Sequence record: NC_025447.1 | DNA: 64,000 nucleotides | Direction: 5' to 3' (one strand) | Source: Escherichia phage 121Q | In this document: piece after piece, positions 43,479-50,011 of the stretch | Position numbering within the stretch: position 1 is the stretch's first letter | How the letters are laid out: every line of letters begins with the position of its first letter | Made by a program: the position numbers and the translations under genes | The notes under the pieces: generated by a model | What the model was told of the DNA's origin: nothing | The model's database searches: none | What the model saw: the letters and a program-made list of their open reading frames with translations, nothing else

Positions 43479-44573
43479 ATGAGTGATTTTTTTGATTCAT
43501 TTGTCAGTACTGGTACAAGTATTGTAAATGGCGTTATTGATAATATAAACATTGTTCGTGAACCTGCTTTTCAGAACTATAATGCTGCACAACGTGTGTT
43601 TGGTACAGCAGGTGAAATGGGGTTTTCATTTTATAATTTACCAAAATTCAAAAATAGTTTTATCATAGAATTTGTTTTAACACCTTTTGCAAAAAACTTT
43701 ATTAAAACTCAATTACCAGATACACATACAGATTTTGATGTTAATAATGTATCATGTTTTGTTAAAGATGTAACTTTACCAAGTTTTTCATTTAATATTG
43801 AAACAGTAAACCAATATAACAAAAAACGACTAGTTACTGGTGACATTGTTTACAAACCAAGTAATGTCGTTTTTTATGATACCGTTGATGGTGCTGGTTA
43901 CTTACTAATGGATGCATATAGAAAGTTTTATTATGGTGATTTCTTTGATAAAAATCCACAGTCATATCGAAATGATGTTCTAAGTACACCTGAAAACTTT
44001 AATGGTTTAGGTGGTAACTGGGGACGTTCAGTAATGAACAATGGAAACTACGATAATCAGTACTTTTTCAAATCAATTAACATATATGAGATTGATAATG
44101 AAACATATACTGTACATAACATGATAAATGTATTCATTGAAGACGTACAATTAGAAACCAAATCTATGGAAAGTGAAGCAGACCCTTCATTAATATCGTT
44201 AACTATGCGATATGAAGCATGTAACAACTTCGGACCAGAAGGATATTTGAGCATTGGTGTACCAACTATGGAAATAGCACAACTAATAACAGACACAGAA
44301 GGTCTTGGTGTTAGTGGGTTTTTTAAGTATTTTGGTGAATTAGACGACAAAACCAAAGGAATTTTAACAATTGGTAAAATTATCCGAGCAGGTACGTCAG
44401 TTAGTGATATAATAAGTAGTGCTGGTGATATATTGCGTGGCGACATTACTCCTGACACAATTCGAAACATAGGTTCTGCTGTAACCAGAGGTGCTAACGC
44501 CATAGGGTTTGGTAGTTTGGTTTCTGAAGCAAGTTCAAAATTCGGATTAGGTAACATTTTAGGAGATTTTTAA
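43479..44573 (+). CDS. hypothetical protein (probable virion/tail-associated)
   Basis: 364-aa ORF in the structural block; AAGGAG RBS. Confidence 0.5.
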
Positions 44574-45001
44574 TGGCTTTCAATCAACAATTTAACCCAG
44601 CAAAGATAACAAATACTAAGCAAGCTCAAGGTATCTTTCCTATAAAAAACATTAAAAAGTATAAAAGTAATAATCAACCAATATACCGTAGTTCGTGGGA
44701 AAAGGACATAATGATTTCATTGGATAATAATCCAGCAGTCATTGAATGGAGTATTGAGCCGTTTAGTATTCCTTATGTTAGTCCAATAGATGGACAAGTC
44801 CACCAGTACTGGCCTGATTTTTATGTACTGTATATTGGTGCTGATGGTAAGCAACATGCTCAAGTACTAGAAGTCAAGCCATACAAACAATGCCACATGG
44901 AGTTGGCTAAATCCAAAAAAGAAAAAATTGCAGTTGCTATAAATCAATCCAAATGGGCTTATGCAATGGAATTTTGTAAAAATAACCGGATTGGAGTTTA
45001 A
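44573..45001 (+). CDS. PD-(D/E)xK nuclease-fold protein (TnsA-N-terminal-like motif arrangement)
   Basis: YWPDFYVLY ... [10 protein letters not shown]: PD ... E-x-K spacing typical of restriction-endonuclease-like fold; ATGA-type overlap with upstream gene. Confidence 0.4.
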
Positions 45002-45031
45002 AATTATAACAGAAAGGAATCTATACAAAAA

Positions 45032-45586
45032 ATGAAATCTAAACCACAAATAGACGAAGCACTGGGATTACCTAGTGCTCAACAATGGATTGAAATGACT
45101 GGTCAAGAACCAGAAGAAGATACAGAAATGGATTTGTATCAGGATGAAGACAAAACTGAAACTGAAATATCATTGGAAGATGCAAAGATTGCAATGGAAA
45201 AGCTCAAAGCAATGCGTGTACAGTTGAGGGAATTACCTGATATTACTGCAAGAAAAACCCAATTGGATCGTTTAGCACAAATGGCAGAACGAAAGTTTGA
45301 GGATATTTTTGATAGAGCATTTAATTGTGAAGATCGTTTTGCAGCAGAGATGATTAATGCTGCAAACTCTATGCTAAAAATAGCTCTTGATGCTCATGCA
45401 AAAATAATTGATTCAGATGTTAAATTAGTTGATCTCCAACTTAAAAAAGACAAAATGGAAATTGAACTAAATTTGAAACCAAAAAAAGAACTTGAGTCTG
45501 TTGGTGACCCAGATGCAATTGAAGGGCAAACCGTAGTTCACAAAACCCGCAATGAAATGCTTGCATCAATGAACAGAAATAAATAA
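45032..45586 (+). CDS. hypothetical acidic, predicted helical protein
   Basis: 184 aa, Glu/Lys-rich heptad-like sequence. Confidence 0.5.
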
Positions 45587-45613
45587 CTTAAACGACCTTA
45601 TGGAGTTATTAAA

Positions 45614-46150
45614 ATGAATAGATTACAACAAATCCTAACTGAAAAGAAACCAGTTTATGAATACCGAGTTAAGTTTGCAGTTGAACCAACACCTGAGCAA
45701 CTTAGTAAAGTAACACAGCGACTAATGGATCGCTATGATGCGTTTGAAATTGGAGCACTAAAGAAAACAATTTTTATGGAAAAACCATTAGATTTCTATG
45801 AATTAGATTGTGGTGAAATTTGGATGTTTGACTTTAAATGTCATCGTGGCGTTCAATCAAATGTACTAATGTATGAAATTGGCAATTTACTAAGCATGAC
45901 AGAAGCATTGATTCGTGTTCGTAGTAAAGATGAACCTCGTCAAATTGAAATGACTGATTTGGAAGATGATATCGATTTTGATGATGTTGATGAACCAGTT
46001 ATTGGAGTGGATTTTGGTAAACCAGAAGACAGTTATGACTTAGCTGGACAACAACGTGCAAACACTGCCGTTGATGATGCAATTGAAGCATCGAAAAAAG
46101 ACAATAAATACTCTCAATATATGAGTGCTGGTTTTGGTAAAAAGGATTAA
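45614..46150 (+). CDS. hypothetical protein with acidic C-terminal region
   Basis: 178-aa ORF. Confidence 0.5.
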   Translation: MNRLQQILTEKKPVYEYRVKFAVEPTPEQLSKVTQRLMDRYDAFEIGALKKTIFMEKPLDFYELDCGEIWMFDFKCHRGVQSNVLMYEIGNLLSMTEALIRVRSKDEPRQIEMTDLEDDIDFDDVDEPVIGVDFGKPEDSYDLAGQQRANTAVDDAIEASKKDNKYSQYMSAGFGKKD

Positions 46151-46153
46151 CAC

Positions 46154-48227: not shown

Positions 48228-48249
48228 TAACTAAAAGGATTTATTTAAA

Positions 48250-49230
48250 ATGGCTAAAAAAATTAATGAAGCACAAGTTAAAATCGATATCGCAGGTTTA
48301 GAATCTGATGATTTGGAAACTCTATCACGTATGTTAGCTCTTGCTGGTCAAGCTGAACGTCAAGACCCAGTAGTTGCCGCTCCAGTACCATCTATGGGGT
48401 CTATGACTCCATCTCTTCCACCTATTGCTCCACTAGATCTCGATTCTATTGGTGCTGAAGAAGAAATTGGTGGAATTGAAACTTCAGTTGAAGACCCACT
48501 AGCAGCGGCAGTTGATGATCTTTCCGCTGATGTTGGTGATTTTGGTGCTGACACAGATGAAGTTAGTATGGATGCTGAATTTTCAGAACCAGGTGTAGAA
48601 GGTGAAGAAGATTTTTCTCTTGACCTTAGTGGTCAACCTCAACTAGAATCAGTTGAAGAAGACGATGAGGAAGAAGAAGAAATTATTGAAGAAGAATTCG
48701 ATTTTAGTCGTATGCTATCTCTTGCTGGTATTAACGAAGAAGAAGACGAAGATTTTTCAGTAGAGGGTAATCCTGCTACCGATAAAGAAATGAAAGATAC
48801 CCAATTTCTACCAGATCTAAGTATCTCTGAAGATGAAGAACCATCTAACAGTACTGATTATGGTCCATATGATACAGAAGCTGATGCCGTTCGTGATGGT
48901 CAACTAAAGACTAATGGTGTTGAAGGTGACCATTTTGTTGTAATTGCAAAAGGCAATCAATTTTATTGGAGACGTGTTGTAGATGAAGATCTTGACAATC
49001 GTCCAGAACCTGAGTATTATGATAATGAAGGGAACGAAAATCGTGTTCATAAATTTGAACCAAAATTCCCAGGCACTGCATTAGGAGATAACCCACTAAA
49101 TGTTAATGAAAGTGAAGAAGATGATTCACCTGAAGGTAACATTGACTTGGAAGATGATTCTGATGAAGAAGTAGAAGATATTTTTGAAAGTCTCCAAGAA
49201 AAATACAAGAAATTTTTAGGAGACAAATAA
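48250..49230 (+). CDS. hypothetical extremely acidic protein
   Basis: 326 aa, Asp/Glu-rich with runs such as EEDDEEEEEIIEEE. Confidence 0.55.
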   Translation: MAKKINEAQVKIDIAGLESDDLETLSRMLALAGQAERQDPVVAAPVPSMGSMTPSLPPIAPLDLDSIGAEEEIGGIETSVEDPLAAAVDDLSADVGDFGADTDEVSMDAEFSEPGVEGEEDFSLDLSGQPQLESVEEDDEEEEEIIEEEFDFSRMLSLAGINEEEDEDFSVEGNPATDKEMKDTQFLPDLSISEDEEPSNSTDYGPYDTEADAVRDGQLKTNGVEGDHFVVIAKGNQFYWRRVVDEDLDNRPEPEYYDNEGNENRVHKFEPKFPGTALGDNPLNVNESEEDDSPEGNIDLEDDSDEEVEDIFESLQEKYKKFLGDK

Positions 49231-49231
49231 T

Positions 49232-49627
49232 ATGCAATATAATTATCGTGAACTAGTTGAAGCGTTAGACGAAATTACCGGAAGAGATGAAGACGAAAGT
49301 TTTTCAGTTGAAGTTGAATCCGATGTTGTAGCAGTTGATGTTCTTAAGGATATTACCAAATGTCTTATTGATATTGTTGATAAGATTAAATCTGGTGAAG
49401 ACCAAAAAGAAATTGTAGATAAACTACAAAAAGCCTGTGACATTTTGTCTGACATTCGATATAATGATGAAAGTACTGAAGTTGCTGATGAAGAAGTGTT
49501 GGAAGCCATTGCAGGTTGTTTTGGAACTGAAGGTATGGGACCAACAATTGACAAAGAAGGCGTACAACACTATAATGAGCCTGGTGCACCATCATATGCT
49601 GCACGTCAAGGTTTTGTTGGAGACTAA
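49232..49627 (+). CDS. hypothetical acidic protein
   Basis: 131-aa ORF; start within 2 nt of upstream stop. Confidence 0.5.
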   Translation: MQYNYRELVEALDEITGRDEDESFSVEVESDVVAVDVLKDITKCLIDIVDKIKSGEDQKEIVDKLQKACDILSDIRYNDESTEVADEEVLEAIAGCFGTEGMGPTIDKEGVQHYNEPGAPSYAARQGFVGD

Positions 49628-49630
49628 TAT

Positions 49631-50011
49631 ATGTTTCCAGAACCATCACATAACAGTACTGAATATCAAAATAATGTACTTTCCAAAGTTAGGGAAGTAC
49701 ATGAATCAGATTCAGAAATAACAGACCGTATGCTTCTGATGTCAATTTTTGAAAATTTCAGAACTGGCGGTGGTTTACGTCTTAGCAAGTTTGGGTATGG
49801 AATTTGTAAAGAAAATAATCTTTATGAATTTACAAAAATCCCCTTGCAAAGAGAATTTAAAAGTTCTATAATGTTTACATCACTTGACAGAATATGTACT
49901 TCACCTTATTATGTTGAAGGTCAGTACATATATCTGACAGATGCAATGATAATAACTGAATTAACATTGTGTTGTGACGATTTTAAACAGTTATTTTCTA
50001 TTCATATGTAA
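49631..50011 (+). CDS. hypothetical protein
   Basis: 126-aa ORF. Confidence 0.5.
   Translation: MFPEPSHNSTEYQNNVLSKVREVHESDSEITDRMLLMSIFENFRTGGGLRLSKFGYGICKENNLYEFTKIPLQREFKSSIMFTSLDRICTSPYYVEGQYIYLTDAMIITELTLCCDDFKQLFSIHM

Follow-up and report, generated by a model that had tools for sequence, protein, structure and literature searches.

In phage T4 the structural genes of tail and head follow one another in the order 18-19-20-67-68-21-22-23, for sheath, tube, portal, 67, 68, protease, scaffold and capsid. The T4 gp21 protease cuts after glutamate within a short, recurrent context, and short leaders of this kind target internal proteins to the prohead core; the motif reads IAE-A at residues 7-10 of gp22, LIE-A at 4-7 of gp67, IPE-A at 19-22 of gp68 and ITE-A at 17-20 of IPI. 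Much less can be said of the Rak2-like jumbo phages (PBECO4, 121Q, phAPEC6, RaK2, GAP32, CBB), which are studied for therapy and in which about 80% of the genes are without a function. Bubblegrams of phAPEC6 revealed a phiKZ-like inner body of 91 x 18 nm to which no proteins have been assigned; according to its authors, nothing similar to the inner-body proteins of phiKZ is present, and proteins with RCC1 domains were proposed instead. Here we describe eight genes, A to H, that occupy positions 44573-50011 of a 64,000-nucleotide stretch of Escherichia phage 121Q (NC_025447.1; hereafter the window). They make up a late-gene block that is conserved among the Rak2-like jumbo myoviruses and includes a relative of the T4 head-completion nuclease gp4 and five virion proteins, C to G.

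The eight open reading frames (ORFs) are consecutive on the plus strand, with intergenic gaps of at most 30 nt (Table 1). The region is 100% identical to that of Escherichia phage SP27 (genus Asteriusvirus) and 99.5-99.9% identical to those of G17, Sharanji, phAPEC6 (99.9%), PBECO4 and others, all of them Rak2-like jumbo myoviruses of about 350 kb in the same genus. Genes A to H belong to a phage group that has already been sequenced and partly characterised, and public records mostly name them 'hypothetical' or 'virion structural protein'. They are preceded by a sheath gene and three tube paralogues and followed by genes for a MoxR ATPase and a metallopeptidase-VWA protein. The order from sheath to VWA is identical in the Asteriusvirus members, GAP32, CBB, RaK2, Yersinia phage fHe-Yen9-04, Xanthomonas phage XaC1 and Vibrio phage 2.275.O; in all, it was seen in eight genera or lineages. 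In 2.275.O, a marine phage, seven of the eight block proteins match by BLASTP (1e-5 to 1e-43), with protein E weak (E-value 0.004). Synteny is partial in PA5oct, where A is kept with 43% identity, B and C are recognised by hhalign at 95-96%, and a 498-aa acidic protein carries the motifs of F; the large terminase comes directly after the retained block genes. Atu_ph07 retains only tube-tube-A. A first-pass annotation, made from the letters of the sequence alone, had remarked that these genes stand where a T4-type order would place portal, protease, scaffold and capsid genes, and the portal-to-capsid cluster does lie about 60 kb from the block in the near-identical phAPEC6 genome.

The small nuclease-fold protein recognised in that annotation is the product of gene A. 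Both Pfam PF08722 (Tn7_TnsA-like_N; 2.1e-16, 60.7 bits against a cut-off of 26.5) and phrog_218 'head closure' (1.8e-40) match it. Its identity to T4 gp4 is 33%, and it keeps the catalytic residues E43, D82 (in 'PD'), E100 and K102, which are invariant across eight aligned sequences including T4 gp4. The protein is basic, with an isoelectric point (pI) of 9.3. The nuclease fold of gp4 itself, PD-(D/E)xK, was predicted in 2005 (PMC1189080), and PMC7824862, citing Benler et al. 2020, ascribes to T4 gp4 a non-specific DNase activity that packaging requires. Taken together, these papers present gp4 as a nuclease on which morphogenesis depends, and the Benler citation is also the source for the need of this activity in head-tail joining by T4. 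Judged by its sequence, A is a straightforward member of the gp4 family; it would act on packaged DNA and enable filled heads to join tails. In the PBECO4 lineage the C-terminus of A is about 10-15 aa shorter than in GAP32, RaK2, the Vibrio phage, PA5oct and T4, and ends in NNRIGV, with the conserved tail 'F(K/R)I.TE..LY' missing; no catalytic residue is lost. Among A to H, only A has a real family: B to H, searched against Pfam, NCBIfam and PHROGs, matched none beyond their own small PHROGs. There is no paralogy within the block apart from an internal motif of F.

Proteins C, D, E, F and G were each detected by mass spectrometry (MS) in at least two of four published virion proteomes, those of phAPEC6 (PMC7247149, Table 1) and of CBB, GAP32 and RaK2 (PMC5259590, Table 4 and Table S1). 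The RaK2 orthologue of G, gp051, had also been named as a structural protein identified by MS (PMC3622015), and in PA5oct both the C homologue and the F-like protein are MS-positive. C to G are virion proteins. For none of the five was a Pfam or NCBIfam family or a related solved structure found.

Table 1. Genes A to H and their neighbours in the window, with internal features and, for C to G, detection by MS in four virion proteomes.
Feature	Coordinates	Strand	Length (aa)	Description	phAPEC6	CBB	GAP32	RaK2
Tail-tube paralogues (three)	41910..44573	+	228, 258, 364					
Gene A	44573..45001	+	142	T4 gp4-type head-completion nuclease (PD-(D/E)xK fold) by Pfam and PHROG matches				
Gene B	45032..45586	+	184	Predicted helical, acidic N-terminal segment, non-virion; probable T4-type small terminase				
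Gene C	45614..46150	+	178	Virion protein; ferredoxin-like domain 1-105, acidic linker, C-terminal helical tail	4 peptides, 41%	13 peptides, 60.5%	yes	yes
Gene D	46154..46696	+	180	Virion protein; Gly/Gln-rich conserved core, Q/P/E-rich linker, C-terminal helix	no	no	yes	yes
Gene E	46710..48227	+	505	Virion protein; three modules of about 95 aa, acidic linker, helical C-terminal domain	6 peptides	no	yes	yes
E repeat 1	46734..47009	+		About aa 9-100 (hhalign)				
E repeat 2	47121..47444	+		About aa 138-245 (hhalign, alignment); absent from RaK2 orthologue				
E repeat 3	47598..47909	+		About aa 297-400 (hhalign)				
Gene F	48250..49230	+	326	Polyanionic virion protein; N-terminal helix with INE-A leader	1 peptide	5 peptides	no	yes
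F motif copy 1	48328..48348	+		RMLALAG				
F motif copy 2	48709..48729	+		RMLSLAG				
Gene G	49232..49627	+	131	Acidic helical virion protein; 10-residue N-terminal leader ending LVE then A	no	1 peptide	no	yes
Gene H	49631..50011	+	126	Non-acidic, Cys-containing (alignment)				
MoxR AAA+ ATPase and metallopeptidase-VWA protein	50327..53151	+		N4 gp24/gp25-like				

The N-termini of some of these virion proteins recall those of T4 core proteins. F starts with M-x3-(I/L/V)-x-E-A in 105 of 110 relatives (here the INE-A is at residues 5-8), and a leader of about 10 residues ending in L-(V/M)-E then A or S, at residues 6-11, is present in all nine orthologues of G. D has LNE-A at 15-18 in Asteriusvirus, and elsewhere the motif is only partly conserved. 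Among 85 crudely called genes of the window, [LIV]xE[AGS] occurs within the first 22 residues of six, four of which are B, D, F and G (Fisher p 0.0005; 0.003 without B). The same signature marks the core proteins of this phage. In the canonical head cluster, examined in phAPEC6 (141122-145392), it was found in four of four: the major capsid protein (LNE-S, 5-8), the scaffold gp226c (LKE-S, 8-11), gp228c (LQE-A, 7-10) and gp229c (IFE-S, 5-8). The last two hold the positions of T4 gp68 and gp67, respectively, and gp228c equals F in acidity (pI 4.06, 31% Asp plus Glu). A gp21-like protease, gp227c, is encoded as well. The first 22 residues of the portal, the protease and two neighbours in the head cluster carry no such leader. 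Of 22 tail and baseplate genes one has it, and no tail gene of the window does. Outside these groups, the thymidylate synthase of the window (54762-55691) has an N-terminal LDE-G at 12-15, and three of its peptides were listed among the phAPEC6 virion proteins.

A leader common to F, G, partly D and the head-core proteins favours protease-processed internal head proteins. The best explanation, which we hold with slightly better than even confidence, is that C to G are part of a head and packaging block in which F, G and possibly D are processed internal head proteins. Going by their sequences, F, G and possibly D would co-assemble into the prohead core, be trimmed by the gp21-like protease and stay inside the head as internal, ejected or 'inner body' proteins, and the polyanionic tracts of F may serve as a flexible spacer or as counter-charge beside the DNA. 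The block would in this way serve head completion and packaging and supply lineage-specific virion proteins, C to G being built into the particle, and would be the clade-specific form taken, in a known phage, by otherwise ordinary functions of head completion, packaging and core. The first-pass annotation had proposed injected or internal virion proteins, scaffolds or DNA mimics; the virion part of this is borne out for C to G, and an internal or scaffold-like role is plausible for F and G and less clearly so for D.

Several observations weigh against this assignment. The block adjoins tail genes and lies away from the portal-capsid cluster, C and E have no leader, and the leader alone is not diagnostic because B carries it yet is no virion protein. 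Moreover, B to H are without sequence or fold homology to T4 head, neck and core proteins, to the phage's own core proteins and to solved structures. When B to H profiles were aligned by hhalign with T4 gp2, 3, 4, 13-16, 19, 21, 22, 53, 67, 68, IPI, 57A/B and 5.4, probabilities were at most 3%, and the same limit held against the phage's own major capsid protein, scaffold, gp228c and gp229c; for D, F and G against gp22, gp67, gp68 and the internal proteins, they were at most 2.9%. Profile searches of B, C and D, together with a deep alignment of B, against all PDB sequences gave nothing meaningful. Homology to known head scaffold proteins, named in the first-pass annotation as the finding that would contradict it, was searched for and none was found, so the lineage-specific character of the block stands. 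The T4 order 4-2-3-1 would suggest C as a gp3-like tube terminator or B as a gp2-like protein, and neither found support.

Gene position and the missing leaders also bear on a different proposal, that C to G are external or junction proteins of the neck, collar, tail or capsid decoration, or anchors or shafts of the 'hairy' fibres on sheath and capsid. The five genes come after those for sheath and tube without an intervening terminator, and phAPEC6 and CBB have hair-like fibres and decoration densities without assigned genes (PMC7247149, PMC5259590). The modular build of E, which combines tandem domains with a long disordered linker and a terminal domain, is like that of many fibre or decoration proteins, and neither C nor E has a protease-type leader. 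However, the authors of the CBB study did not see the whiskers on GAP32 and expected this phage to lack the genes behind them (PMC5259590), and GAP32 nonetheless carries C to G, three of them MS-detected in its virions. The leader of F and G is that of bona fide head-core proteins and is scarce in tail and baseplate genes, the block abuts the large terminase in PA5oct, and C to G have no fold similarity to solved neck, tail or decoration proteins, including those of the recent jumbo-phage atlases in the PDB copy searched. We consider an external or junction role unlikely.

An extension of the internal reading would make C to G the inner-body or ejection apparatus of the Rak2-like phages, targeted to the prohead by T4-like leaders. 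F would then organise the 350-kb genome, acting as a spacer or decoy that resembles DNA, and would enter the cell before the DNA or together with it, and the triplicated module of E would be a new fold building the rod. This is a speculative picture that we think improbable as a whole.

F is the most strongly charged protein of the block, with a pI of 4.05, a net charge of -75 and 29.4% Asp plus Glu. The first-pass annotation had reported a protein with about 40% Asp and Glu over long stretches, and in F the content reaches 41% over residues 70-169 and 48% in the best 50-aa window. Besides an N-terminal helix, F contains two SRMLxLAG motifs and long acidic tracts; its C-terminal domain (about aa 200-290) is small and conserved, and there is a C-terminal helix as well. 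The motif, (D/E)xxFDxxRMxxLAG(I/L/Q), is present in two copies and totals 197 occurrences in the family, against 2.9 expected from shuffled sequences; its core, [RK]M..L[AS]G, occurs nowhere else in the window. Relatives of F were found only in jumbo-phage contigs (110 clusters among 5.8 billion proteins), and all 110 keep the acidity, with Asp plus Glu of 21-30% and a pI of at most 4.17. The charge is concentrated in a stretch of 117 residues without Lys or Arg, in a gappy, poorly conserved part of the orthologue alignment, and probably not on a folded surface. Tryptic peptides of 7-30 aa cover only 31% of the residues, so with few observable peptides and this long stretch a low MS coverage of F is to be expected. 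PA5oct gp203 has position, acidity, LAG motifs and a similar C-terminus in common with F; homology was not demonstrable by profile, and gp203 was treated as an analogue.

The charge of F raises the question of DNA mimicry, which had been suggested for the acidic proteins. F, perhaps with G, might be a DNA-mimic or polyanionic anti-defence protein that is carried in the head and enters the cell along with the DNA, where it would block restriction or other DNA-binding defences. As a virion protein it could be delivered early, its extreme acidity is conserved in every relative, and packaged anti-restriction proteins are known, namely T4 IPI* and the Dar proteins of phage P1. Yet no homologue of F was found among Ocr, ArdA and the Pfam and NCBIfam families, and its acidic tracts are Lys/Arg-free, poorly conserved and variable in length, whereas known mimics display their charge on rigid folds. 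Conservation in F falls on the leader, the LAG motifs and the small C-terminal domain and not on the charge pattern. F is also a strictly syntenic core gene across distant genera, unlike typical anti-defence genes with their fast turnover. DNA mimicry by F is therefore speculative and without positive support, and we rate it as quite improbable and less likely than an internal role in the head.

Elsewhere in the block acidity is less pronounced. The first-pass annotation had spoken of several highly acidic proteins. This is true of F and of G (pI 4.10, 25% Asp plus Glu); B and C are moderate at 20-22%, the 90th percentile of the window ORFs being 20%, while D, E and H are ordinary in overall acidity and A is basic.

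The 505-aa protein E had been described as having a duplicated module. The duplication is real, and the module is present in three copies: hhalign gave 99.8% for repeats 1 and 3 (E-value 1.7e-28), 99.0% for repeats 2 and 3 and 97.9% for repeats 1 and 2, and a control comparison of the repeats with the C-terminal domain gave 0.1-0.3%. In an AlphaFold model (mean predicted local distance difference test score 76, mostly 80-95 within the three modules), each module is predicted as a beta3-alpha-beta3-alpha unit, and the units appear to be joined by disordered linkers and followed by a helical C-terminal domain, which is conserved. Residues 406-448 form an acidic linker with 35% Asp plus Glu. No solved structure matches the module in our PDB copy, which includes the recent jumbo-phage atlases, and relatives of E occur only in jumbo-phage contigs, in 52 clusters among 5.8 billion proteins. 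We regard E as a lineage-specific, unmatched fold in three tandem modules. In RaK2 (6974-7921) the orthologue has 315 aa and is without the middle repeat, and in XaC1 (6879-8735) it is represented by three ORFs, by frameshifts or sequencing errors.

Protein C has a domain with a generic ferredoxin-like fold. The phAPEC6 record starts C and E at internal Met codons, giving 141 and 456 aa (7153-7578 and 8285-9655, respectively); the longer forms of 178 and 505 aa are probably correct since their N-termini are conserved across genera. For D, the GenBank labels 'Hsp70' and 'RED-N' are unsupported, with no Pfam or NCBIfam match above cut-off. Matches of D to sigma-70 and of G to phiKZ_IP and saposin were below the cut-offs and were discarded.

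Gene B is the best conserved of the block, with 58-90% identity between genera and a conserved core at residues 58-147; its sequence predicts a helical protein. It is reported in none of the virion proteomes of phAPEC6, CBB, GAP32, RaK2 and PA5oct, and 62% of its residues fall in observable tryptic peptides. An exhaustive phmmer search of 1.8 billion proteins gave at least 227 cluster representatives, nearly all of 150-190 aa, and 150 aligned members were scanned. Of these, 22, each with an E-value to B below 5e-5, match phrog_445 'terminase small subunit' (best E-value 8.3e-7), which T4 gp16 matches at 5.5e-15 over a co-linear range. Direct alignment of B with a seven-sequence gp16 alignment by hhalign was likewise co-linear (B 81-182, gp16 59-147) and not significant (P 0.012, probability 3.6%). 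One GenBank record labels the gene small terminase, and in PA5oct it lies three genes upstream of the large terminase. B would be a non-structural, oligomerising helical protein, and on these sequence comparisons the chance that it is the small terminase, regulating the large terminase, seems to us even or marginally better. To that extent the first-pass view that none of the proteins could be assigned does not hold: A is clearly a T4 gp4 nuclease, and B is probably a remote relative of T4-type small terminases.

Other findings speak against the terminase assignment. A Pfam scan of the 150 relatives of B found no family, PF11053 being absent from all of them, profile searches found no small-terminase match for B in the PDB, and the direct alignment to gp16 is weak, as given above. 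In Asteriusvirus about 78 kb separate B from the large terminase (E9.1 coordinates), and an unrelated 227-aa ORF overlaps the large terminase start there, as T4 gene 16 overlaps gene 17. Alternatively, then, B could be a non-structural assembly factor, a chaperone or scaffold-like helper for C to G or for head-tail joining, with the 227-aa ORF in its classic overlapping position as the true small terminase. In agreement with this, B does not match gp16 directly in Pfam or by profile, it lies far from the large terminase in Asteriusvirus, and 128 of 150 relatives match no terminase profile. Neither the 227-aa ORF nor an adjacent one of 161 aa has any terminase signal at all, however, whereas the matches to phrog_445 are co-linear with that of T4 gp16, B and gp16 are alike in length and layout with an N-terminal 'hh[DE]xxxLP[GS]' motif that is common to both by eye, and the PA5oct arrangement places B near the large terminase. 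We take the assembly-factor alternative seriously but are inclined to doubt it. The two ORFs (phrog_15898 for 161 aa and phrog_27915 for 227 aa; E9.1 1765-2978) are of unknown family and lie directly upstream of the large terminase.

H is listed in no virion proteome. Residues C59, C89 and C114 are invariant in its orthologue alignment, and we describe it as a conserved non-virion protein.

No terminator-like hairpin was found in 42691-50011, from the second tube gene to H; such hairpins are located behind the genes for the sheath, the first tube protein, MoxR and VWA. The stretch from the second tube gene to at least G, and perhaps to H, thus appears to be a single late transcription unit. 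A to G in particular look like one late morphogenesis unit, and H may have its own promoter. On the plus strand, six of the 13 matches to the sigma70 consensus of at least 11/12 in the whole window cluster in 48992-50157, including a perfect 12/12 match at 49548-49576, inside G and 55 nt before H. The 315-nt gap before the MoxR-VWA pair contains tandem extended -10 promoters of the sigma70 type at 50036-50063 and 50130-50157. The cluster suggests host-polymerase (early) expression of MoxR-VWA and perhaps of H. The T4-type late promoter core TATAAATA is depleted in the window, with two occurrences against 10.8 expected, so the late promoters of this clade must differ from those of T4 despite an encoded late sigma factor (phAPEC6 gp237c).

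All three tube paralogues were MS-detected in phAPEC6, and each was also found in at least one of CBB, GAP32 and RaK2. At 364 aa, the third far exceeds the usual length of a tube protein; it may initiate or terminate the tube. Downstream, the MoxR ATPase was found in phAPEC6 virions (6 peptides). Iyer et al. 2021 (PMC7824862) proposed that the MoxR ATPase and VWA-peptidase pair takes part in virion assembly, as chaperone and peptidase. The pair could act on the block proteins, but has its own promoters. The 'HNH endonuclease' label given to the VWA protein in several GenBank records has no support in an NCBIfam scan, the only scan run.

These results refine the annotation of the Rak2-like phages and do not overturn current understanding, since most of what the block encodes appears to be ordinary phage morphogenesis. 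They show that it is a core module throughout the clade, with conservation reaching a marine Vibrio phage and, in part, PA5oct, and they add a probable small terminase otherwise missing from most annotations and offer concrete candidates for the unassigned inner body of phAPEC6. The N-terminal [LIV]xE[AS] leader may be used as a simple signature that separates likely processed head-core proteins from tail proteins in these genomes. The misleading database labels 'Hsp70', 'RED-N', 'HdfR' and 'HNH endonuclease' are corrected.

Compared with known systems, the block is closest to T4 at gene A. T4 gp4 and A have in common their size class, the E...PD...ExK residues and linkage with tail genes, and adjacency of tube and gp4 genes is also found in Atu_ph07; in T4, gp2 and gp3 come next, whereas here A is followed by B to H. 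B resembles the T4 gp16-type small terminases (PF11053; phrog_735, phrog_445) in length (about 165-185 aa), in being non-virion, and in its acidic variable N-terminus, conserved core that is predicted to be helical and short conserved C-terminal motif. It differs from them in having no direct Pfam or profile-profile match and in not being adjacent to the large terminase in Asteriusvirus.

F and G resemble the prohead core proteins, both those of T4 (gp22, gp67, gp68, IPI-III) and the phage's own gp226c, gp228c and gp229c, in the leader and helical N-termini, in strong acidity (pI 4.06 for gp228c and 4.05 for F; T4 gp67 has a poly-Asp/Glu tail) and in their presence in virion preparations. In contrast to the T4 core proteins, they are without sequence homology to them, are encoded by the tail genes and not between portal and capsid, and are much larger than gp67 and gp68, and F has its own LAG motif and C-terminal domain. 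As unassigned virion proteins, C to G could supply the phAPEC6 inner body as the PF12699 (phiKZ_IP) proteins do that of phiKZ, but only G matches that family, below threshold (E-value 0.036, 13.7 bits against a cut-off of 27). With the mimics T7 Ocr and ArdA, F has its extreme negative charge in common; that charge lies in variable Lys/Arg-free tracts as opposed to a rigid DNA-shaped fold, and F is a syntenic core gene and virion protein where those mimics are early cytoplasmic proteins.

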